NCBI GenBank assembly: GCA_018655015.1
Contig: JABIKK010000011.1
Span: 111,736 to 175,735, forward strand
Length of the DNA stretch: 64,000 bases
Direction of reading: 5' to 3'
DNA from: Candidatus Woesearchaeota archaeon
GTDB taxonomy: Archaea > Nanobdellota > Nanobdellia > SCGC-AAA011-G17 > UBA489
In this document: piece by piece, positions 10,292 through 56,868 of the stretch
Layout: each line of letters starts with the position of its first letter
Position numbering within the stretch: the stretch's first letter is position 1
The notes under the pieces: generated by a model
What the model was told of the DNA's origin: nothing
Databases searched by the model: none
The model's input: only the letters and a program-made list of their open reading frames with translations
Program-made: the position numbers and the translations under genes

Positions 10292-10516
10292 ATGGAACAA
10301 AGCAGACCATTAGATTCATTAAATCAAAGCCGAGGTAAAAGAGTACTTATAGAGCTTAAGAACGGAAAGCAATTTGTAGGTATTTTACAAGCGTTTGATA
10401 TTCATATTAACATCGTTCTTGATGAAGTTGAAGAGTTCGAAAATGGAGAACTTAAGAGAAAATTAGGAACTACGTTTATTAGAGGAGACACAATAACAAT
10501 AATCTCCCCACAATAA
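10292..10516 (+). CDS. Sm-like archaeal protein (SmAP/LSm)
   Basis: Sm1/Sm2 motifs in PLDSLNQSRGKRVLIELKNGKQFVGILQAFDIHINIVLDEVEE...FIRGDTITII. It is followed 2 nt later by L37e, a conserved archaeal gene pair. Confidence 0.85.
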   Translation: MEQSRPLDSLNQSRGKRVLIELKNGKQFVGILQAFDIHINIVLDEVEEFENGELKRKLGTTFIRGDTITIISPQ

Positions 10517-10517
10517 T

Positions 10518-10766
10518 ATGTCAAAAGGAACCGCAGCAAAAGGATTAAAGAGAAATAAAGGAAGACTTCACATTAGATGTAGACGATGTGGTAGTGCTTC
10601 TTATCATAAGATTAAAAGTGTGTGTAGCAGCTGTGGTTATGGAAATAGTGCTAAGTTAAGAAGATATAACTGGCATAAGAAAACTGTTAGCAAACTTAGA
10701 ATTGTTTCTAAGATAAAGCAACATATGAATAAAAGAAAGAAGAGTGGCTTCAAGTTAGGTAAATAA
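10518..10766 (+). CDS. rpl37e: 50S ribosomal protein L37e
   Basis: C4 zinc ribbon RCRRCGSASYHKIKSVCSSCGY. The whole protein is very basic. Confidence 0.9.
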   Translation: MSKGTAAKGLKRNKGRLHIRCRRCGSASYHKIKSVCSSCGYGNSAKLRRYNWHKKTVSKLRIVSKIKQHMNKRKKSGFKLGK

Positions 10767-10822
10767 TCGCACTTACTTGGTTCTTAGTGAAAGCTATTGA
10801 ATAAGTCTTCATTTAATTTTTT

Positions 10823-11629
10823 ATGTTTGAATTAGATTGTGATATGGCTTATTTGATTGGAGCTTTAGTTGGAGACGGATATATTAGTGATCGTTGTAAG
10901 TCTAAGAAAGATCTTTCGAAAGATTACCGAATAAGTGTTGAGATTTCGGATCTAGACTATATGGAGAAAGTTTTATTCCCACTTTTTAAAAATATTATTT
11001 CGACTAGAAGCATTCCTAAACGAAGAAAGAGACAAGGTAAAAAAGAAAGTTCTTATTTCATACTTAGGAACAAGAATCTCTATCTTTTTCTTACTAAAGA
11101 AATTGGACTCATTGCAGGGAAGAAAGAAGGTCTTGTTGTACCAAAAAAGATTACTAATTCTAGTCGGCAAATCAAGAGGAGTTTTGTTGCAGGTTTGTTT
11201 GATACGGATGGAGGATTTAGGGGGAGGAGTTTGGGATTTACAATGAAATCCAAAGCCCTTAGAAATGAGATTATTCTTTTATTAAATGAGAGAGGAATAA
11301 GCTCTAAGGGGGATGAATGGGTTGCAAAGTATAATGGTTTGAGTTATTATGGTCTTAGAATTGCTAAAAGAGATATAGTTAATTTTTTAAAGCAATTTCC
11401 TTTGAGAAATCCTGAGAAACTCGAGAATATTAATCAAAGGTTTTTCAACTCATGTGGGAGTGCCGGAGTGGTCAAACGGGCTGGAGAGGACTCTAAGGAG
11501 AAATCGGCCAAGCTTAGGACTACTCAAAGTAAGAAACCCAGTGGCTTAGTGCCTACTAAGGTTCGAACCCTTACTCCCACACTTATTTTTATTTCTCTAG
11601 AAATTGTGGAGGTAAAAATATCTCTTTGA
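10823..11629 (+). CDS. Free-standing double-motif LAGLIDADG homing endonuclease (3' end of ORF uncertain)
   Basis: Two LAGLIDADG motifs: LIGALVGDGYIS and VAGLFDTDGGF. The last ~55 codons read through a tRNA-like sequence and look non-protein-like, so the true C-terminus is probably earlier. Confidence 0.7.
   Translation: MFELDCDMAYLIGALVGDGYISDRCKSKKDLSKDYRISVEISDLDYMEKVLFPLFKNIISTRSIPKRRKRQGKKESSYFILRNKNLYLFLTKEIGLIAGKKEGLVVPKKITNSSRQIKRSFVAGLFDTDGGFRGRSLGFTMKSKALRNEIILLLNERGISSKGDEWVAKYNGLSYYGLRIAKRDIVNFLKQFPLRNPEKLENINQRFFNSCGSAGVVKRAGEDSKEKSAKLRTTQSKKPSGLVPTKVRTLTPTLIFISLEIVEVKISL
11454..11580 (+). ncRNA. tRNA-like element: good acceptor stem, D-arm and T-arm but no canonical anticodon arm. 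Possibly an intron-containing class II tRNA or a tRNA pseudogene/remnant.
   Basis: GTGGGAG at the 5' end pairs perfectly with CTCCCAC at the 3' end. D-arm is CCG-GAGTGGTCAAA-CGG, T-arm is TAAGG-TTCGAAC-CCTTA, and a possible variable hairpin is GGC-TTAGT-GCC. The central ~55 nt contain duplicated AGGACT/CTTAG motifs and I could not fold a 5-bp anticodon stem. Confidence 0.4.
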
Positions 11630-12581
11630 CTTCTTGCATGTTTAATTGAAATTCGTAATCTGTAAGATTTTCACCAAAATAAGTCCTCATATTTGTGAAC
11701 ATCTCTCTGAAGTGCTCTCTACTTTTAGCGTATAGGGAAATTACAAGGTTATACTCTCCTGCGATCCTAGTGCAGTAGCCCACATAAGGATTATCTTGTG
11801 CAAAAAACCTTATTTTAGAAATCATTTCTTTATTCATTTTATCAATCTTTAGATTAATATAATATGATTCCAATCCAAATTTGTTTAAATCTAAAACAGC
11901 AGTATATCCAAAAATAACTTGAAATTTTTCTAATCTTTTTATTCTAAGACGAACAACATCCTCGCTAACAGATAATGTTTTGGCAATCTCTTTATTTTTT
12001 ATTCGGCAGTTTTCAGCTAGAGTGGAAATAATTTTTATATCTATATCGTCTAGTTTTATTTTTAATTTCTTTTTTTCACCAAAACTAATGTTTGGTCTGA
12101 TGCATGCTTGTTTTACGTTATGAATGATAATATCTTTACGATCAAACTTATATTCTGTAACATAAAGAGATAATTTATGGTCTTTTAGATTGTTACCCAT
12201 GTATTCAACTATTTCTGAAATCTTTTCTGCTAAATCTTTTGTGTTTTTGTATAGTAGTGTAATAACTATGTCTGCTGAACCGCATAATTCTGCAATCCAA
12301 TTTATGGAATTGTGATTTTTTAGGAATTCAATAATTTCTTTGAATTTTTTCTCATCTGAACGAGTTAGTTTGAAGAGTACTGTTCCTACACCTTCGCAAA
12401 AGAAGGACATATTTATTTTTGCAATTGTTCCTTTGATTATTCCTGCATCTTGTAATTTGTTGATCCTATATCTGACAGTTTCTCTAGTTAGATTACTTTT
12501 CTTTGCTAATGAACTGATAGAAGCTCTTGCGTTTTCATGTAATGCGTACAAGATCTTTCTATCAATGTTGTCAATCTCCAT
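11589..12581 (-). CDS. Tandem-duplicated Lrp/AsnC-family transcriptional regulator (two HTH plus RAM-like units in one chain)
   Basis: First unit: IDRKILYALHENARASISSLAKKSNLTRETVRYRINKLQDAGIIKG. Second unit: DDIDIKIISTLAENCRIKNKEIAKTLSVSEDVVRLRIKRLEKFQVIFG. Confidence 0.75.
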   Translation of the reverse strand: MEIDNIDRKILYALHENARASISSLAKKSNLTRETVRYRINKLQDAGIIKGTIAKINMSFFCEGVGTVLFKLTRSDEKKFKEIIEFLKNHNSINWIAELCGSADIVITLLYKNTKDLAEKISEIVEYMGNNLKDHKLSLYVTEYKFDRKDIIIHNVKQACIRPNISFGEKKKLKIKLDDIDIKIISTLAENCRIKNKEIAKTLSVSEDVVRLRIKRLEKFQVIFGYTAVLDLNKFGLESYYINLKIDKMNKEMISKIRFFAQDNPYVGYCTRIAGEYNLVISLYAKSREHFREMFTNMRTYFGENLTDYEFQLNMQEVKEIFLPPQFLEK

Positions 12582-13860: not shown

Positions 13861-16800
13861 TTAAAGGTTGATTGTTAATTTTTCACCTAGTAGTTTACTT
13901 GTGTCGATTTGATCTGTAACTACACTTTCTTTTGCACCCGCATCATCTAAGCCATAAACAAGAATCATTAAACCATAATCTCCGCTAGTCATTCCTTCAT
14001 TTTTCATTTCTGAGGGGGTTATTTCCATGGTAGTGCTTCCCGTATCTGCAGACCTCATAACAATGGCTTGACCATTTTTTTCAATTACTGCTTTTAATTC
14101 TAGGTTGCTAGGGTCAAAGAAAATAAATTTGTAGTCTACTTCTTTATCTCTCAGACGAAGCTCTCTGAAAATCGATTCAATCATTAGATTCTCACTCTGA
14201 GGGTAAGATCTTATTGCAATGACGTTATTTTGAGGATCATATCTTAGATTAAAAGTTATCCTCCCTGGAAAGGAATCATAAATGGAACATTCATTTTCTG
14301 CTCTCAAAAGCTTACAAGTTCCCCTTGCATAAACTATGCATTGAGGGTCTTCACAAAATCCTAAATTTTGATCAACATATTCTGCACATAAAGGATTATC
14401 TGAACAAAATGAAGCCTTGCTTTCTCCCGGATCTTCATTCATGGAAGAATGAGATAATGAAGGTGGTTGTGAAGGGTTGGTCTGTTGATTATTATTTGTG
14501 TCGCTACTAATTTGCTTATTTTCAGTAGATACTGCTAAAGTTCTGTATAAATCTGCAAGTCCAAGTCTGAGCTCTATCTGAACTTTGGGGTCCGCTAATC
14601 CATTGTTATCGATTACATCTATGTAAATGTTAATTGCTTTTTCATATTCATCAGTTGAGATTGCAGATTTAATTCTCTCTTTTGCATCTTTGATATCTTC
14701 TGTTGTTAAGTAAACGGATTTTAATCCAAGTTTTTTTACGTAATCATTAATTCTATCTACGGCCCCTTGCGTTGCATTAGGTAATGTTTTTGTAAAGTTG
14801 TTCCAATCTATATCTTTGTTTACTGAATATTCTGTAACTATGTTTTTTGCTGAAGGTAGGTGTAACCAACAGAATCCTAAATTTCTTCCTTCATTGGGCT
14901 TTGGCCCTTCCCAGCATTCTCCAACTTCTTTCCAATCTGCGTCATCTCCAGGAACGAATGTTGAACATACTCTTGTTATTCCTGTGTCCAATAGCCCTGA
15001 TGAAAATCCACCTGCAACAACAGCTCCAGTTTTTGTAGCAGCATTAGTGTAAGGTCCACTTAAACTTGAGCCTGAAGGATTACATTGTTCTGCAGTTTGT
15101 ATTTCAGCTTGACCTGCTTCTTTTTCCGCCATTTTTTGTGCAACCCAATTTGCTGCAAAGCCAGAAGTTGTCTTACCAAATCCACATTCTTCCCTTACAC
15201 CATATGTTGGACTGCTGTAAGCCATACATACTTGGTTGTAGCCTTCGGGGGCATTGAAGTCAATGTTTTCTGAACTAAATGCATCAGGAGTTAGTCTCTT
15301 ATTTCTTACTAACCAGGCTATTGGAAGTCCACTTTGACCATCGATTGACTGGTGCTTTAGATAAACTGAAAATGAGAGTGGTTCATTTGCTCCAGCATAC
15401 ATTCTGTAGTATACCTTGTATGTTGATTGTGGAGGGAATGGAATATCTGAGTAAGGTACTACATCCATTATTGCTGTGAATTGTGGAGGACTTTCTGGTT
15501 GCATTAATCTATCTGTGAATGATCCGACCCCTGGAACCTTGCCATATACTGCGGACTTACAAACTTCTGCGCCTATCTCGGGTAGAGCTCCACCAGAGAA
15601 TTGTGCGAAAGTGTTTTTTGCATAATCTTGAGTGAAGAATTTTAATCCGTTGATGGATTGGTCCATGCTTGCATCAAAGTCGGTATATTCTGATCCTTCA
15701 TTATCATGAATTTTATTTAATATTGTTCCAACTAATCCACTTTTAATATTGAATATTGCGATTGCTTCTTTCCAAAGGACATCACATATGTAATAACTTC
15801 TTAACATGTCACATATTCCAACAGACTCGTCATCAACTAAAGATCTTTTTAGACAATCAGAATATTCCATTAACACAGTTCTAATGTTTTGTAGACCTGC
15901 ATAAATTCCAGTGATACAAACGGGCATTACAACTTGTCCGCCATCAAATCCTATATCTGTTCCCGGTATACCCCAGTTATGTAATCCTAAAATTGTGCTT
16001 CCAATAATTCCTGTTTCTGCCACATTATCAACTTTCCAGGTTCCACCTAAATCAAATCTACTTGGTGGACAAAGAACTGGATCACATGCGTTGAATAATA
16101 ATTTACATTCTGTTGGACTGTAGAATTCTACACAGGAAGGCCCTTTTGTAATTGGATCGTTTCTAATTGCATAATCAATTCCATTACAAATTACTTGATC
16201 TCTGTTTGAAGCTTTTGCTCTGTTAATTGTGCCAACACATGATTCAACTTTCTTAAGATCTGCAGTATTTTTCCCTTCTTTGTTCCACTTTTCTGTTGTA
16301 GCGCTTAGACTATTTCCTCCAAATTCTGTGTCATCTGCTCTTATTTCCTCATTAGGGTTTATACGACCAAATATTCTTGGTTCAAGCATTCTCCCTCCAG
16401 AAGTGTAGTCTACCTCGGCGTAGTGTGTTGCATCAATAGTCATCCTATGGATTTTGCCTGCATTTGGCCCGTCAGTATAGTAAGTTACCTTGGGGATATG
16501 TTTTACTCTTTGTTCAACTGAAGTTGAGGAGAGGGTGTATGTTTCTCCATCTGGAGAAAGTAATGATGTTGCATCTGGTTCGTTGCTTCCAAAGAGAATT
16601 AGTCCTCCCTTAGGAGAAGGATAGGCATAATTTGTTCTAGAACGTGCTAATAAAACTGCTACATTTGCCTCTTCTTCTATTTTTTGTGGAGCCCAATCTG
16701 GATGTTTTATCTTTAATTCTCCGGTTTTTCTTTCAATCCACATTTCTTCTACGTTTTGTGAAAGTTGTGAATCCCCAGGATCTAATTTGAATTTTGCCAA

Positions 16801-19761
16801 GTTACCCACAAATACTTTGTTATCATTTGGTAAGTAGGCTGACGATTGAGAATTATCTAATGTTGAAAGGTAATCACTATGGTCGGAATAACTTGGATCA
16901 GAGCGAAGTTCCCTAAACATCTCGGCATTTCTCTCTTCTACTGCAATTTGTAAGTTGGCTCTTTCTTCATCGGATAGTACATCACCTGAAGGATTCAATC
17001 TTTTTAATTCTTCATCATAGTTTTTATCTTCTTTTATAGCTACATAGGCATTAAGGTAATCCTTTGTGTTTTGGGAGCTTGAGTTTTGAATCATTCTCTT
17101 TTGAAGATACGCAAGATTTTCTAGTTGTACACTATTTTCTGGAGTTTTTTTAATACCACTCAGATCATCTGCATAACTATCTTTGGAAGCATATTCGTAT
17201 GCATCTTCAGTTTCTTTTAGAATTTGATTATATGCATCTTCGTTTTCAAAAACACATTCGTCCATGGCTAAACCTTGCCTTTTACATAACTCTCCTTGTT
17301 GTTCCCAGAATATCTCTGATGCTCTATCTTTTGCTCTACCTGAACCTGAACCAACCGTTGCCTTAAGGAAATTCCATGCAGCAATTGCAGTAAATACTCC
17401 GAAACAGAATTTCTTCCATGCCTCATGGATCTTTCCAACTTTTTCCAAAGTATCGTCTAACTTTAATAGCAATTTTTCTGTTTTGTCAATTTCTGATTCT
17501 ATTGAAGCTGAGAATAATGGTAGGTCGAATGCTCTTTTTTCAATTGGAATATGTAAATTAAATCTTGCCGCACTAAATGCTTTTTCGATATTTGGACTTA
17601 CAATTATATGTGCTTCATTGTGAAGTTCGACACCTTCAAGGATTACTAGTTGGGTTTTAGATGTGTCTTTGTTTTTTATTGGAATACTTAAACCATTTCT
17701 ATCGTCTCTTAAAATTGTCATATCACTCTTAAAAGTTTTATCTGTGGGAGAGAGAACTAAAGAGTTAGAATTTATCTTTTTAACAATCCAAGGTGAATAT
17801 CCTTCCATGAAAGGCATTGCTTCTCCCTCATGTAATGTATGTTTTTCTTTGGCTATGGATCCATCTGGCTTGTAAACCTTAACTGTTGCAGTTGATTTGC
17901 TCCCTTCTAGTTGATAATCTGTAACGCTTGAACCATCTAAGACTACAGTCACTAGTTCATCATTCTTTTCCTTCAGATCTATTTCGGCCTTAAGACTTTG
18001 TCCAGAAGGGTTTTTTATATATGCAGTTAGTAGGTCTACCCTACTTTGGATTTTAACAGGGGAAATTATTGATTCTGCTTCTGTTTTTTTGTCACCATTA
18101 TATGCTATAATCATTTCAAGTAATCTATTGTATTCTATTATTGCTTGATTATGATTTTTTAATTTCGCATGATAAATAACTGCTTTGTTATATTGTGCGT
18201 AGAACTCGGGGATTAAATTTTTGTCTCCACTTGCTGCACCCTCGTAACTAACTTCCGTGTCTCCATCTACTAAGGAAACTACGCTTGCATATTCGTCGGC
18301 AGATAGTTGGTAAAGTTCATTTGCTTTTTTATCATCGGGGATTGTTCCAAGAGAAAACTCTGCGGTTTGGTAAGTTTTCCAGTAAGTCCCTAGGAATTCA
18401 TTTAATCTTGCCCTTGCTAAATTGTGAATGATTTCAAAACTGCCATCTTTAGTTAACATCGCGGCAGTATCAGATTCTATTTGTGTAAGTAATGATTGCA
18501 TTGCTTTTGCATGTTCTTTTGAAACTGATGTAGGGTTCTCTTGAAATATATCTACACAGGGATTTAATGTTTTTAGTGCTGCATTGTAGTTGTCGGGTGT
18601 TGTTGCTGTACGAAGTTTTTCTTCTACATCTTTAACAGCAAAAGATAATTCACTTCCTTTTGCAATTGGTCCGCATCTCAGGACGAAGGTTCCAGTAATT
18701 CCCATGTTTTCATTTTTGGCAATAGGCAAGTCATCAAATTCAATCTCTCCCGCTGCAGACCTTACAGATATCGGAAATCCTGCAGTTTGTAGTCTGCCAC
18801 TAGGTGTCCTGAAATCTGCATGTAAATTATTGTCCCTTAGTTCTATTCTCTCTAAAGTTATTCCTGATCCAGGGTAGATTGATTCTCCTTCAGCTACAGT
18901 ATGTGTTTCTGGCACTCCGTCTCTAAGAACCATAATGTCTAAAGTTCTCCCACCAGATTTAATATCTTTAAGATAAACATTAAACTTGTCAAAAACCTGA
19001 CCTGGAGAATAAAACCTACTTCTCCTTAACGTTCTTGATTTTTTTCCTTTTTCTATTCTTAGATCATCTTCTATGAGATTACCATTGTTATCATAAATAT
19101 CAAATATTGCATAGTTAGAAGATATTTCTTCAGCTTCAATGTAGATGTTTAAATATTTTTGATTTTCCCTGTTGCTTCTTTCTATAGATTTTTCTCTAAT
19201 AACCATTTTTGTTGGGCTTTTTCCAATTCCTGAAGAAACATCAAACAAAACTCTTGAATCAACTTCGATTATGATTTCATCTGGAACATTAGATTCTTTT
19301 GGAATTCTTGCAATAGGGATTTGTAAGTAACCCATGTTATCATAGGTTAATGGTTGTGTTCTGTCTCTGAAGTATCTCGGTCTTCCAACTCTTACAGGCA
19401 GATCTTCTGGCACAGTTACAACATTGTATGAAAGAATATCTATGTCATGAATTTTTGGGACTGTGATAGCCGGATTACTTGGCGTTCCTGAAAGTATTGC
19501 ATATACTAATGCTCCCTGATCTTCTAAAATGCCTGTTCGGAGTATTGATGGTTGATACTCTTTTACGTTGATTATTATGTCTTCCCCTATTATGTCTGAA
19601 ACTGTTGGAGATTCTGTAAGACGTCTATCTAATTCATCCCCTATACTTCTTGCTTGGTCCCCTATATTTGTTTTAACTATTTGACCTGATGCTATTGGTA
19701 ACGTTAGCACTAGGAAAATCATAAACATTGAAATTAGTTTTTTAAGTTTCATTTTATTCAA
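13861..19761 (-). CDS. Giant secreted/surface protein (1966 aa) with N-terminal signal peptide
   Basis: Uninterrupted 5.9 kb ORF. N-terminus MNKMKLKKLISMFMIFLVLTLPIASGQ. A Cys-rich module lies around CVGTINRAKASNRDQVICNGIDY...CKLLFNACDPVLCPP, and CSDNPLCAEY...CEDPQC near the C-terminus. No TM outside the signal peptide. Confidence 0.6.
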   Translation of the reverse strand: MNKMKLKKLISMFMIFLVLTLPIASGQIVKTNIGDQARSIGDELDRRLTESPTVSDIIGEDIIINVKEYQPSILRTGILEDQGALVYAILSGTPSNPAITVPKIHDIDILSYNVVTVPEDLPVRVGRPRYFRDRTQPLTYDNMGYLQIPIARIPKESNVPDEIIIEVDSRVLFDVSSGIGKSPTKMVIREKSIERSNRENQKYLNIYIEAEEISSNYAIFDIYDNNGNLIEDDLRIEKGKKSRTLRRSRFYSPGQVFDKFNVYLKDIKSGGRTLDIMVLRDGVPETHTVAEGESIYPGSGITLERIELRDNNLHADFRTPSGRLQTAGFPISVRSAAGEIEFDDLPIAKNENMGITGTFVLRCGPIAKGSELSFAVKDVEEKLRTATTPDNYNAALKTLNPCVDIFQENPTSVSKEHAKAMQSLLTQIESDTAAMLTKDGSFEIIHNLARARLNEFLGTYWKTYQTAEFSLGTIPDDKKANELYQLSADEYASVVSLVDGDTEVSYEGAASGDKNLIPEFYAQYNKAVIYHAKLKNHNQAIIEYNRLLEMIIAYNGDKKTEAESIISPVKIQSRVDLLTAYIKNPSGQSLKAEIDLKEKNDELVTVVLDGSSVTDYQLEGSKSTATVKVYKPDGSIAKEKHTLHEGEAMPFMEGYSPWIVKKINSNSLVLSPTDKTFKSDMTILRDDRNGLSIPIKNKDTSKTQLVILEGVELHNEAHIIVSPNIEKAFSAARFNLHIPIEKRAFDLPLFSASIESEIDKTEKLLLKLDDTLEKVGKIHEAWKKFCFGVFTAIAAWNFLKATVGSGSGRAKDRASEIFWEQQGELCKRQGLAMDECVFENEDAYNQILKETEDAYEYASKDSYADDLSGIKKTPENSVQLENLAYLQKRMIQNSSSQNTKDYLNAYVAIKEDKNYDEELKRLNPSGDVLSDEERANLQIAVEERNAEMFRELRSDPSYSDHSDYLSTLDNSQSSAYLPNDNKVFVGNLAKFKLDPGDSQLSQNVEEMWIERKTGELKIKHPDWAPQKIEEEANVAVLLARSRTNYAYPSPKGGLILFGSNEPDATSLLSPDGETYTLSSTSVEQRVKHIPKVTYYTDGPNAGKIHRMTIDATHYAEVDYTSGGRMLEPRIFGRINPNEEIRADDTEFGGNSLSATTEKWNKEGKNTADLKKVESCVGTINRAKASNRDQVICNGIDYAIRNDPITKGPSCVEFYSPTECKLLFNACDPVLCPPSRFDLGGTWKVDNVAETGIIGSTILGLHNWGIPGTDIGFDGGQVVMPVCITGIYAGLQNIRTVLMEYSDCLKRSLVDDESVGICDMLRSYYICDVLWKEAIAIFNIKSGLVGTILNKIHDNEGSEYTDFDASMDQSINGLKFFTQDYAKNTFAQFSGGALPEIGAEVCKSAVYGKVPGVGSFTDRLMQPESPPQFTAIMDVVPYSDIPFPPQSTYKVYYRMYAGANEPLSFSVYLKHQSIDGQSGLPIAWLVRNKRLTPDAFSSENIDFNAPEGYNQVCMAYSSPTYGVREECGFGKTTSGFAANWVAQKMAEKEAGQAEIQTAEQCNPSGSSLSGPYTNAATKTGAVVAGGFSSGLLDTGITRVCSTFVPGDDADWKEVGECWEGPKPNEGRNLGFCWLHLPSAKNIVTEYSVNKDIDWNNFTKTLPNATQGAVDRINDYVKKLGLKSVYLTTEDIKDAKERIKSAISTDEYEKAINIYIDVIDNNGLADPKVQIELRLGLADLYRTLAVSTENKQISSDTNNNQQTNPSQPPSLSHSSMNEDPGESKASFCSDNPLCAEYVDQNLGFCEDPQCIVYARGTCKLLRAENECSIYDSFPGRITFNLRYDPQNNVIAIRSYPQSENLMIESIFRELRLRDKEVDYKFIFFDPSNLELKAVIEKNGQAIVMRSADTGSTTMEITPSEMKNEGMTSGDYGLMILVYGLDDAGAKESVVTDQIDTSKLLGEKLTINL

Positions 19762-25707: not shown

Positions 25708-25762
25708 AATGAACTGAAATCTCATAAATTTCTTTAAAAAACTTTGGATTTTAAAAAATCAG

Positions 25763-25878
25763 TGAGCCCAGCCGGATTTGAACCGGCGACCTCCAGCTTT
25801 CTTAGAGCTTGTTTCCTTTTCTAAAACGAAAAGGCGTCATATAAGACTGGCGCTCTAACCAGACTAAGCTACGGGCTC
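25763..25878 (-). tRNA. Intron-containing tRNA. Predicted mature anticodon is UAU (tRNA-Ile), with a ~41-nt intron at the canonical 37/38 position.
   Basis: 5' exon is GAGCCCGTAGCTTAGTCTGGTTAGAGCGCCAGTCTTATA. The intron is TGACGCC...CTAAGAA. 3' exon is AGCTGGAGGTCGCCGGTTCAAATCCGGCTGGGCTCA. Anticodon stem CCAGT/GCTGG closes only after removing the 41 nt. Confidence 0.7.
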
Positions 25879-56214: not shown

Positions 56215-56868
56215 GTGGTGGTTAAGTATACTAAATTGGAGCATCCTGGCGGAATTTATATTTACAGGGTTCATAATAAGAAGTTAGACAAGTTCTGTAG
56301 TGGTGAATTGGGTGGTTTGAAGAGTTTTTTGACTGATATGTTTGAATCTTGTCCAGATGATTATTTTGGTAGAGGGCCTAGGGGAAGTGCTTTGAAGTTT
56401 AGTTCTAATCACGAGATGGTTGAATTAAGTGGCCATAGAGTTTGTAGTTTAGCAGAGAATGGATTGAAGGTTAATGCTGATAGGTTCAAATGCAACCATA
56501 GTAAAGTTCAATTGTTTATGTTGGAAAATGATTATGAGACTGTTGCAATTGAAGTTCCTATTTGGTTAAATTCTGATGAGATACCTAGATATGAAGAAAT
56601 ATTTGGAAGTACTGAACCCTTGACTGGACATATTGATTTGTTAACTATTGAAGATGGTAAGATTTGGGTCTGGGATTATAAGCCTAATGCGCATAAAGAG
56701 AAATATGCCGATACGCAAGTTTATTTTTATTCTTTGATGTTAAGTAAGAGAACTGGAATTCCTTTGGAAAAGTTTAGATGTGGTTACTTTGATTGGGATA
56801 GGGCCTATATGTTTAAGCCTGGAGAAATTGAAAGTAAAGAACTTAATTCTAGTTTGAAGAATTACTAA
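56215..56868 (+). CDS. RecB-family PD-(D/E)XK nuclease (Cas4/NucS-C-like core without a C-terminal Cys cluster)
   Basis: Motif II GHIDLL, motif III WDYK (DxK) and the family-specific QVYFY (QhxxY) motif, all in order. Confidence 0.55.
   Translation: MVVKYTKLEHPGGIYIYRVHNKKLDKFCSGELGGLKSFLTDMFESCPDDYFGRGPRGSALKFSSNHEMVELSGHRVCSLAENGLKVNADRFKCNHSKVQLFMLENDYETVAIEVPIWLNSDEIPRYEEIFGSTEPLTGHIDLLTIEDGKIWVWDYKPNAHKEKYADTQVYFYSLMLSKRTGIPLEKFRCGYFDWDRAYMFKPGEIESKELNSSLKNY

Follow-up and report, generated by a model that had tools for sequence, protein, structure and literature searches.

Gene content of the locus

The window analysed here, a 64,000-nt stretch of DNA from a Woesearchaeota-type DPANN archaeon, contains a free-standing open reading frame (ORF) for a LAGLIDADG homing endonuclease whose 3' end runs into a tRNA-Leu(UAG) gene with two predicted BHB introns (Table 1). 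The ORF is flanked by genes for LSm and ribosomal protein L37e on one side and by a convergent Lrp/AsnC regulator gene on the other, in agreement with an earlier note on this DNA, which had placed it between ribosomal and regulatory genes and outside any intein or rRNA context. The synteny S8e / LSm-L37e-(endonuclease)-tRNA-Leu recurs in loci L001-L008 and at many others. A search of the 64,000-nt window for further LAGLIDADG genes found none besides the 10823-11629 ORF.

Table 1 Features of the endonuclease-tRNA locus, in window positions
Feature	Position	Strand	Details	Basis or remark
LSm gene	10292-10516	+		Pfam; conserved upstream neighbour
Ribosomal protein L37e gene	10518-10766	+		Pfam; conserved upstream neighbour
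LAGLIDADG homing-endonuclease ORF, free-standing	10823-11629	+	268 aa	ORF list, Pfam, homologues, AF2 model
Conserved enzyme core	10823-11452	+	residues 1-210
LAGLIDADG motif 1, AYLIGALVGDG	10847-10879	+	A9-G19	putative catalytic Asp18
LAGLIDADG motif 2, SFVAGLFDTDGG	11180-11215	+	S120-G131	putative catalytic Asp129
Read-through part of ORF			residues 211-268	crosses tRNA gene and 48 nt past its end
A/T-rich box AATATTAAT	11426-11434	+	-28 to -20 from tRNA +1
tRNA-Leu(UAG) gene	11454-11581	+	128 nt, class II, discriminator A73	two BHB introns
Exon 1	11454-11484	+	acceptor 5' strand, D-arm, anticodon-stem 27-30 (CTGG)	manual parse against intron-free orthologues
Intron 1	11485-11511	+	27 nt	non-canonical position 30/31
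Exon 2	11512-11518	+	G31 and CTTAGG (positions 32-37)	anticodon TAG at 11515-11517
Intron 2	11519-11535	+	17 nt	canonical position 37/38
Exon 3	11536-11581	+	A38, CCCAG, variable arm GGCTTAGTGCC, T-arm, acceptor 3' strand, A73
Lrp/AsnC regulator gene	11589-12581	-		convergent to endonuclease ORF

The two LAGLIDADG motifs that had been read in the ORF are borne out: YLIGALVGDG occupies residues 10-19 and FVAGLFDTDGG residues 121-131 of the product, and the profile search suggested at the time returned Pfam LAGLIDADG_3 (PF14528) at 56.6 bits (E 3e-15; cut-off 22.5). We found 25 homologues of the protein. Across a comparison of 15, with identities down to 27%, G17 and D18 of motif 1 and F121, G124, T128, G130 and G131 of motif 2 do not vary; residue 129 is D in 14 of the 15 sequences and E in L128. 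The AF2 model (pLDDT 93.5, pTM 0.90) comprises two alpha-beta-beta-alpha-beta-beta-alpha repeats in a pseudo-dimeric fold, for which chains of I-DmoI are the top Foldseek ranks and best PDB match (E 1e-11, TM 0.7-0.8); the WhiA transcription factor and the bI3 maturase are also among its structural matches. Motifs and model together mark the product as a single-chain homing endonuclease of the LAGLIDADG family, similar to I-DmoI, in which both catalytic motifs are intact and for which DNA cleavage is predicted.

A tRNA-Leu(UAG) gene with two predicted introns

The earlier note had described a tRNA-like element at 11454-11580 that lacked an anticodon stem and could not be folded canonically. 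Its start is correct and its true end is 11581, including A73. The reported perfect 7-bp acceptor stem (GTGGGAG/CTCCCAC), D-arm (3-bp stem, class II type) and T-arm (TAAGG-TTCGAAC-CCTTA) are all present, and so is an anticodon stem, CTGGG/CCCAG, the 5' strand of which is interrupted by an intron. The MFE fold of the unspliced element is not a cloverleaf, default ARAGORN called no tRNA on 11454-11581, and Rfam at E<=10 gave no tRNA match there. The tRNA search that the note had proposed thus came up empty at default settings, returned tRNA-Phe(aaa) with a 46-nt intron at 34/35 when introns were allowed, and gave tRNA-Leu(tag) after manual splicing: with 11485-11511 and 11519-11535 removed in silico, ARAGORN reports an 84-nt tRNA with U33, G37 and A73, which folds as a class II cloverleaf. 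The tRNA-Phe(AAA) parse was rejected, having G33 instead of U33, an implausible anticodon and a structure contradicted by the orthologues. Intron-free orthologues (L035, L098, L118, L122) read GGGCTGGGCTTAGGACCCAGT, base for base the predicted spliced sequence. Dozens of independent contigs also conserve the element beside this ORF, and it is therefore more than a chance resemblance. These comparisons show 11454-11581 to be a tRNA-Leu(UAG) gene that is predicted to be functional, with both introns predicted to be spliceable; the suggestion that it is what is left of a tRNA at an old homing site fails for this intact element, and a pseudogene class was likewise rejected for a complete gene that folds once spliced. 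A further tRNA candidate at 56361-56505 folds poorly and is probably false.

Intron 1 has a BHB motif with H = GGCT/GGCC, bulges GG-A and AA-G, and an inner helix of GA/TC plus CTC/GAG; it is classed as a relaxed form because the outer helix is weak. The same architecture is seen in 21 distinct sequences; in 19 of them H is fully paired (4/4) and the inner helix, 2-10 bp long, varies in sequence. L006 carries a compensatory A29/T41 pair within the split anticodon stem. The motif of intron 2 consists of H = CTTA/TAAG, 3-nt bulges GG-A and AA-A, and inner helix CT/AG. Among 22 genuine sequences with this intron, H is fully paired (4/4) in 13 and has 3/4 pairs in seven, and inner helices of different sequence are found; four loci naturally without the intron (L004, L005, L038, L057) read GCTTAGGACCCAG, the predicted junction. 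Covariation of the intron helices across more than 20 genomes supports both predicted introns, and the archaeal splicing endonuclease would excise the two. The earlier idea of a tRNA with a large non-canonical intron was correct in placing an intron in the tRNA and wrong about size and number, there being two small BHB introns instead. The note's view that each of its explanations would be unusual for archaea was an overstatement, as non-canonical intron positions, 30/31 among them, and multi-intron tRNAs are well known there (PMC4090602).

The heptamer CTAAGGA (11493-11499) lies within intron 1 and is, judged by relatives with two intact cassettes (L039, L113), a putative vestige of another anticodon cassette, with AAG. 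As anticodon loops of the window gene, CTAAGGA (AAG) and CTCAAAG (CAA) were both rejected, for they would require introns of 6-7 nt with no BHB. CTCAAAG, like CTTAAGA in relatives, is largely dictated by the conserved H' TAAG.

Overlap of the endonuclease ORF with the tRNA gene

The endonuclease core ends at 11452, and tRNA +1 is at 11454. Because it lacks a stop codon of its own, the endonuclease frame runs on through the tRNA gene until a stop happens to occur, 48 nt beyond the tRNA and within the convergent Lrp gene. The overlap of C-terminal codons with the tRNA-like element, put at about 55 codons previously, is confirmed and amounts to the last 58, and the stop codon of the endonuclease mRNA lies downstream of the tRNA's RNase P site. 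AATATTAAT, within the endonuclease coding region, may serve the tRNA as an archaeal TATA box. Endonuclease-free orthologues have CTTTTTAAA at about -38 to -28, and this box is retained inside the ORF in several endonuclease-bearing loci, where it encodes IPLKN.

Association of the endonuclease family with tRNA genes

Homologues at 37-90% identity (~40 distinct Woese- and Pacearchaeota loci) adjoin tRNA-Leu(UAG) in all cases inspected and lack their own stop, and relatives at 26-31% identity adjoin tRNA-Leu, tRNA-Thr(GGU), tRNA-Met and other tRNA genes. The C-terminal tails of the 15 homologue proteins examined are all encoded by the tRNA, in three different reading frames. At ~70 of ~75 assessable metagenome loci a tRNA lies within a few tens of nucleotides of the ORF end, and the right end of the endonuclease cassette falls consistently at -2/-3 of the tRNA; the upstream context varies (L37e, TK, GTPase, or none). 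In total, 39 distinct endonuclease-bearing tRNA-Leu(UAG) genes were counted. Shared across these loci, the tRNA-edge position is shown to be a trait of the whole family of predicted endonucleases in tiny DPANN archaea. The last of the three explanations offered in the earlier note, insertion of the endonuclease into or beside a tRNA gene, thus gains support as a feature common to the family. Searches of the open-access literature turned up no description of free-standing LAGLIDADG genes sited at tRNA genes in archaea, nor of a family of them devoted to tRNA genes.

Signs of mobility, decayed copies and footprints

Comparison of related loci, as had been proposed, reveals cases in which the endonuclease gene is absent and the tRNA intact. 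The clearest pair is L004 and L057, with flanks 98% and 92.5% identical, identical tRNAs and the endonuclease only in L004, where a 682-nt cassette replaces the 54-nt spacer of L057 and homology resumes 2 nt before tRNA +1. L128 differs from L082 by an insertion of ~727 nt and has tRNA positions 1-33 (33 nt) in duplicate. Several lineages have such a duplicated 5' tRNA fragment, with the original promoter, upstream of the endonuclease gene, and further 5' remnants were seen in L130, L161, L138, L140, L150, L152 and L164. True remnants of the kind once suspected in the window element itself are accordingly found in related loci upstream of the endonuclease gene (L128, L130, L138, L140, L152); the window's own spacer (10767-10822) was examined for a 5' tRNA remnant and has none. 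The duplicated fragment is the footprint that would be expected if a cassette of endonuclease and new tRNA 5' part had been copied into a broken tRNA gene. The break point remains imprecise because most remnants are recognisable only up to about tRNA position 21. A reading of the upstream fragment and ORF as one giant D-loop BHB intron was discarded: the flanks of the would-be splice sites are identical, not complementary, and the downstream tRNA is complete on its own.

Pseudogenes and partial copies, frameshifted and truncated ones among them, occur in L066, L181, L182, L188 and L198, and the gene is absent altogether from L030, L035, L039, L060, L103, L105, L114 and L118. Endonuclease identity to the window declines in parallel with LSm/L37e identity, and long vertical inheritance with occasional loss therefore fits most of the distribution, which frequent horizontal homing would appear to fit less well. 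Presence or absence of the gene between close relatives, the decayed copies and the duplicated 5' tRNA fragments show indirectly that the endonuclease gene is probably a selfish, at least intermittently mobile element.

Anticodon-arm interruption in carrier genes

The remnants in L128 and L138 are uninterrupted through 30/31 and end at ~33/34, and of the corresponding carrier copies that of L138 has intron 1 and that of L128 an altered stem, CTACG/CGTAG. The anticodon arm is interrupted in 37 of 39 endonuclease-bearing versus 10 of 21 endonuclease-free genes (Fisher p = 5e-5; pooled, kinship ignored), and the same association is not significant in the endonuclease-agnostic genome scan alone (p = 0.33). 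Intron 1 without endonuclease is common (L030, L039, L057, L103, L114), and endonuclease without intron 1 is found in L129-L132, L174 and L185. These exceptions in both directions rule out strict collaborative homing, in which the endonuclease would always accompany intron 1.

Proposed mechanism and alternative explanations

We consider it likely that an intron-split tRNA-Leu(UAG) gene, an abutting selfish LAGLIDADG family and a cut-and-repair mechanism together form one explanation of the locus. Judging from the footprints, the enzyme would cut endonuclease-free tRNA-Leu(UAG) genes between the D-loop and the anticodon loop, and repair from a carrier allele would copy the endonuclease gene and the adjoining tRNA segment, with LSm/L37e providing the left homology for gene conversion in the window's lineage. 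Carrier alleles would escape cutting through intron 1 and/or intron 2 or through altered stem pairs, and the tRNA would then be transcribed from a promoter embedded in the endonuclease 3' coding region. The more specific proposal that tRNA genes are the homing sites of this DPANN LAGLIDADG family, and that BHB introns and stem variants are kept as site-breakers or spread by co-conversion, is tentative and on balance doubtful.

An improbable alternative is a domesticated, vertically inherited host LAGLIDADG protein that has lost homing and has a cellular role tied to tRNA-Leu, for instance as a DNA-binding regulator of the overlapped tRNA promoter or a pre-tRNA-Leu maturation helper. Domestication would suit a location conserved in homologues of 26 to 90% identity, an endonuclease identity that tracks the neighbouring LSm and L37e, conserved residues suggestive of purifying selection, and a C-terminal IPLKN motif overlapping the tRNA BRE/TATA-like box, and it has precedents in WhiA and the bI3 maturase, both among the structural matches. 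It sits poorly, however, with the near-identical L004 and L057, which differ in gene presence with the tRNA unchanged, and with the many related genomes without the gene, the frameshifted or truncated copies (L066, L181, L182, L188) and the duplicated tRNA 5' fragments flanking the endonuclease gene. Both catalytic acidic residues are also kept, whereas domesticated WhiA-type proteins are not known to retain the two.

There is a slim chance that the homing site is instead the upstream spacer plus the first tRNA nucleotides, such that insertion destroys the site and introns or stem variants are irrelevant to immunity. The invariable cassette end at -2/-3 of the tRNA, the occurrence of intron 1 and endonuclease without each other, and the identical tRNA sequences of L004 and L057 are all in keeping with a junction site, but upstream spacers are not conserved between genomes and the anticodon arm is interrupted in 37 of the 39 carrier alleles. 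Such a site also leaves unexplained the upstream duplicates of tRNA positions 1-21 or 1-33 (L128, L130, L138), which place the break inside the tRNA gene. A reading of the element as a dead relic or as a tRNA split by a single large intron, which takes in the first two explanations of the earlier note, has a negligible probability. The intron-permitting ARAGORN call and the lack of an Rfam tRNA match speak for it, yet that parse yields G33 and anticodon AAA, and the two-intron parse is a clean tRNA-Leu(UAG). The base-for-base match of that parse to natural intron-free orthologues and the covariation in both introns and the split stem refute this reading.

Comparison with known systems

The best structural match, I-DmoI from the 23S rRNA intron of Desulfurococcus mobilis, shares the single-chain two-motif LAGLIDADG fold, and with I-PorI-type enzymes it is likewise archaeal and tied to a stable-RNA gene with BHB-type introns. 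I-DmoI is however encoded within the intron that it mobilises, whereas in the window the ORF is external to the RNA gene, on its upstream side; the host gene of I-DmoI is an rRNA rather than a tRNA gene, sequence identity is only ~20%, and the introns here (27 and 17 nt) are ORF-less, unlike its coding intron. Assignment to the intron-encoded class was rejected, the ORF core ending before tRNA +1.

T4 SegB is a free-standing GIY-YIG homing endonuclease in a phage tRNA gene cluster. It is reported to cut a related genome in the region of the tRNA genes and thereby to have its own region inherited preferentially (PMC2330249). The window gene resembles it in being free-standing next to a tRNA gene, and the same behaviour is inferred for its product, but the present family is LAGLIDADG on a cellular archaeal chromosome rather than GIY-YIG in a phage, and it has the ORF-tRNA overlap, tRNA introns and duplicated tRNA fragments that SegB lacks. 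F-CphI adjoins the intron-containing psbA in cyanophage S-PM2 (PMC6083498), and T4 mobE is paired with the I-TevIII intron (PMC2790892). As at these loci, a free-standing endonuclease gene lies beside a gene with an ORF-less intron in the presumed cut region, an arrangement in which the two could spread jointly. The phage cases involve group I introns of protein-coding genes and experimentally shown cleavage sites; here the sites are inferred, the introns are of the protein-spliced BHB type, and intron 1 and the endonuclease need not be inherited together.

Multi-intron and non-canonical-intron tRNA genes are known from Thermoproteales and Nanoarchaeota (PMC4090602). The window gene shares with them the presence of two BHB/HBh' introns in one gene, here at the known non-canonical position 30/31 and at 37/38, and standard finders miss such genes. 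It differs in its Woesearchaeota-type DPANN host, the protein ORF overlapping the tRNA gene and the putative second-anticodon-cassette relic in intron 1.

Implications for DPANN archaea

For genome annotation, the tRNA-Leu(UAG) gene is missed by default ARAGORN and Rfam, and the endonuclease ORF set by gene callers is too long by up to 58 spurious codons; DPANN genomes may for this reason appear to lack tRNA-Leu(UAG). The family might be mined for compact meganucleases whose targets are long, conserved and predictable. If the more specific homing-site proposal is true, it would provide a DNA-level route for the gain and transposition of archaeal tRNA introns. A family that sits on tRNA genes, leaves tRNA duplicates and hardly ever occurs beside an uninterrupted anticodon arm is a directly testable system. 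Introns have been proposed to shield tRNA genes from integrating elements. The disruption of tRNA genes is likewise said, in an idea attributed to Randau and Soll, to protect against DNA parasites, and a tRNA-homing family would, if true, be a concrete and testable instance of that idea.

Structure of the tRNA-like element

The tRNA-like element at the 3' end of the LAGLIDADG ORF was described in the earlier note as having an acceptor stem, a D-arm and a T-arm, as lacking an anticodon stem, and as impossible to fold canonically. The description is accurate except for the anticodon stem, the halves of which (CTGG and CCAG) are present 53 nt apart. Default ARAGORN called no tRNA in this interval, Rfam gave no tRNA match even at E ≤ 10, and a cloverleaf was not obtained in the MFE fold. 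The body resembles an archaeal class II tRNA-Leu, with a 3-bp D-stem, G26, a long variable arm (GGCTTAGTGCC) and A73. A one-intron parse was rejected, as a single intron never yields a U33 loop (ARAGORN, when forced, returned tRNA-Phe(AAA) with G33). Excision in silico of two bulge-helix-bulge (BHB) introns leaves 84 nt, called by ARAGORN as tRNA-Leu(tag).

Features of the endonuclease–tRNA locus, its surroundings and related tRNA-Leu genes (window positions unless a locus is named)
Feature	Coordinates	Strand	Description
LAGLIDADG ORF	10823-11629	+	268 aa; ORF list
ATACCTTTAAAAAA counterpart	11402-11416		within ORF
tRNA-like element	11454-11581		perfect 7-bp acceptor stem, class II D-arm, T-arm, discriminator A
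Intron 1	11485-11511		position 30/31; H GGCT/GGCC, bulges GG↓A and AA↓G, inner hairpin
Cassette relic	11493-11499		
Intron 2	11519-11535		ACTACTCAAAGTAAGAA; canonical 37/38; textbook BHB, H CTTA/TAAG, bulges GG↓A and AA↓A
Lrp/AsnC gene	11589-12581	-	3' end overlapped by ORF at 11589-11629
Large ORF	13861-19761	-	1966 aa, no Pfam hit on record
Second intron-containing tRNA	25762-25878	-	41-nt intron
Two-cassette tRNA-Leu genes	L039:3948-4090; L113:3086-3230		G-CTAAGGA then G-CTTAGG

Comparative data from homologous or related loci of other genomes and metagenomes (given as L numbers) confirm the two-intron reading. Four loci without intron 2 (L004, L005, L038, L057) read GCTTAGGACCCAG, exactly the predicted junction, four others contain neither intron (L035, L098, L118, L122), and the split stem of L006 has a compensatory A29/T41. 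In 21 distinct intron 1 sequences, H is paired 4/4 with bulges RG↓A and AW↓G (AA↓C or AA↓A in non-UAG genes), and 19 of the 21 have an inner helix of 2-10 bp whose sequences are unrelated. Intron 2 covaries in the same way across 22 genuine sequences, with H paired 4/4 in 13 and 3/4 in seven. Archaeal tRNAs with an intron at position 30/31, or with several introns, are well known (PMC4090602). Judged from these alignments, the element is an ordinary, hard-to-detect tRNA-Leu(UAG) with two predicted introns.

The internal duplication reported earlier (CTAAGG/CTTAGG) stands, as a relic: relatives L039 and L113 have two intact anticodon cassettes in tandem, GCTAAGGA then GCTTAGG, and CTAAGGAGAAATCGGCC of the window aligns to CTAAGGAATCGGCC of L113. 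Each intact cassette is preceded by an H'-plus-bulge signal able to pair with the same upstream GGCT, and in L113 the helices ATCGG/CCGAT and GGCC/GGCT cannot form together; alternative BHB splicing of one such gene might thus give either tRNA-Leu(AAG) or tRNA-Leu(UAG). An A34 anticodon (AAG; loops TTAAGGC and CTAAGGA), where archaea usually have GAG, occurs in many Woese- and Pacearchaeota tRNA-Leu genes (among L013-L127), and the near-identical introns of L023 and L103 accompany genes differing solely in A34 versus T34. The tRNA genes of these genomes are heavily fragmented. Their tRNA-Leu genes also include T-loop or T-arm insertions (L042, L091, L147, L150, L164), variable-arm insertions (L040, L188) and 37/38 introns of at least 55 nt (L061, L070, L072; 55-66 nt in the latter two). 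The second intron-containing tRNA of the window was seen only with introns allowed in ARAGORN; its call as tRNA-Ser(tga) looks wrong, given a short variable loop, and the intron position or isotype is doubtful.

Endonuclease family and its tRNA association

Profile (Pfam LAGLIDADG_3, 56.6 bits, threshold 22.5), motifs and fold all place the ORF in the LAGLIDADG family. Residues 1-210, including G17, D18, K101 and the FDTDGG motif, are conserved in an alignment of homologues, 25 of which were obtained by database search. The AlphaFold model (pLDDT 93.5) has two alpha-beta-beta-alpha-beta-beta-alpha repeats, and the PDB structures that it matches best are chains of I-DmoI (E 1e-11, TM 0.7-0.8, 20% identity), with intein endonucleases ranked lower. 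On these grounds, the protein is predicted to be an I-DmoI-like single-chain enzyme with an intact active site. An intron-encoded enzyme was rejected, since the endonuclease core ends at 11452 and so lies outside the intron.

All 15 homologue proteins examined end in the translated 5' region of tRNA-Leu, and none of their genes has its own stop codon. Their tails mostly read ...GSAGVVKRAG..., with another frame (VPERSNG) in homologue P0011 and L110 and a third in L128, and the tail is therefore not under selection as protein. The window frame is open by chance across the entire tRNA and stops 48 nt beyond it, inside the convergent Lrp gene; the resulting 41-nt overlap is a further indication of a fortuitous tail.

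The window ORF lies downstream of S8e (-), LSm (+) and L37e (+), with the Lrp/AsnC gene downstream, and homologue-encoding contigs share the order S8e / LSm-L37e-(TK)-endonuclease-tRNA-Leu. Counterparts of the large window ORF (1700-2600 aa in L001, L006 and L129) are conserved just downstream of the locus. A tRNA-Leu D-arm pattern picked out 120 loci in species-representative genomes, most of them from Woese- and Pacearchaeota, and an endonuclease profile picked out 80 in metagenomes. Of the ~75 metagenome loci with downstream sequence, ~70 have a tRNA gene no more than a few tens of nt from where the ORF ends. Homologues at 37-90% identity adjoin tRNA-Leu(UAG) without exception. Relatives at 26-31% identity adjoin tRNAs of various identities in both orientations: tRNA-Leu (L194), tRNA-Thr(GGU) with the stop codon within the tRNA (L189-L193, L204, L205), convergent tRNA-Met(CAT) (L200, L202), or other tRNAs, including intron-bearing ones, in or beside which the ORF ends (L197, L199, L201, L203, L206, L207, L210, L211). 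The association would thus be older than the tRNA-Leu-specific clade. The upstream gene differs (L37e, TK, GTPase, or none within 2.5 kb), and the constant partner is the tRNA rather than the ribosomal-protein operon.

Where the endonuclease is missing, tRNA-Leu genes are preceded by a CTTTTTAAA box from about -38 to -28. Several loci that do bear the endonuclease have this box as ATACCTTTAAAAAA, equally far from the tRNA but within the ORF, where it encodes a conserved C-terminal IPLKN/FPLRN motif (L006, L049, L131, L174, L185; ~45-30 nt upstream of tRNA +1). The stretch is probably dual-use, both protein-coding and a putative BRE/TATA-like promoter, because it matches the CTTTTTAAA box at the same distance. 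The window counterpart encodes PLRN (CCTTTGAGAAAT), with an alternative box, AATATTAAT, at -28 to -20. With boxes inside the ORF at promoter distance, we infer that the tRNA promoter must lie within the C-terminal coding region. An endonuclease mRNA running into the tRNA would lose its stop codon by RNase P cleavage. AT at -2/-1, reading ATG with +1, is found at most loci with or without the endonuclease gene and at every closely examined locus bearing it (exceptions elsewhere are AC, GT, TT and AA).

Mobility of the endonuclease gene and proposed protection of the tRNA gene

L004 and L057, with identical tRNA genes and flanks 98% and 92.5% identical, differ in that a 54-nt spacer in L057 is replaced in L004 by a 682-nt cassette containing the endonuclease gene, homology resuming 2 nt before tRNA +1. 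Many syntenic L37e-tRNA-Leu loci have no endonuclease (L030, L035, L039, L060, L103, L105, L114, L118), and some copies are truncated or frameshifted (L066, L181, L182, L188, L198). Relative to the endonuclease-free L082, L128 contains a ~727-nt insertion comprising the endonuclease gene and a duplicate of tRNA positions 1-33, with the old 5' tRNA fragment remaining upstream. Such fragments are also found in L130/L161, L138, L140, L152 and L150/L164, all of them with a CTTTTTAAA-type promoter box still in front; in L138 and L150 the duplication takes in the AT dinucleotide. Such a footprint would be left if the tRNA gene were broken internally and then repaired from one side with an endonuclease-tRNA donor, and the repeat could then act as a left homology arm. 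These comparisons are evidence for a probably selfish gene, at least intermittently mobile; a domesticated role seems improbable. Endonuclease identity to the window falls in parallel with that of LSm and L37e (endonuclease/L37e/LSm 90/93/93, 56/73/77, 46/67/71 and 39/53/68%), which counts against frequent horizontal movement. The best fit appears to be a gene that persisted vertically for long, was lost now and then, and homed locally.

The longest remnants, in L128 (to position 33) and L138 (to ~34), have no interruption at 30/31, versus intron 1 in the carrier copy (the tRNA allele adjoining the endonuclease) of L138 and a rewritten stem, CTACG/CGTAG, in that of L128. Among close homologues, L129 alone adjoins a tRNA without introns, and the stem there is flipped to CAGGG/CCCTG. 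Counting distinct tRNA-Leu(UAG) genes, the anticodon arm is interrupted in 37/39 endonuclease-adjoining versus 10/21 endonuclease-free genes (Fisher p = 5e-5, with two sampling frames pooled and kinship ignored; p = 0.33 in the endonuclease-agnostic genome scan alone). Strict co-inheritance of intron 1 and endonuclease was rejected because intron 1 is dispensable in carriers (intron 2 only in L130-L132, L174, L185) and common without the endonuclease. We infer, more weakly, that the carrier may be protected whenever its anticodon arm is interrupted or altered. That tRNA genes are the homing sites, with introns and stem variants breaking the recognition site or spreading by co-conversion, is a tentative and rather unlikely extension.

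The nearest functional parallels of the endonuclease may be phage endonucleases of the free-standing kind. One is SegB, encoded in the tRNA cluster of T4, which cleaves a related phage in its tRNA gene region (PMC2330249); F-CphI and mobE form 'collaborative homing' pairs, whose target is interrupted by a neighbouring intron without an ORF (PMC6083498, PMC2790892). The present gene is likewise free-standing but differs in catalytic family and in its cellular archaeal host, and only here are there protein-spliced BHB introns, an ORF-tRNA overlap and a duplicated 5' tRNA fragment. The searchable literature yielded no description of a free-standing tRNA-gene-associated LAGLIDADG family. The endonuclease belongs to a known enzyme family, within which it represents a new branch associated with tRNA genes; with it, a connection between the disruption of tRNA genes and DNA parasites becomes open to experiment.
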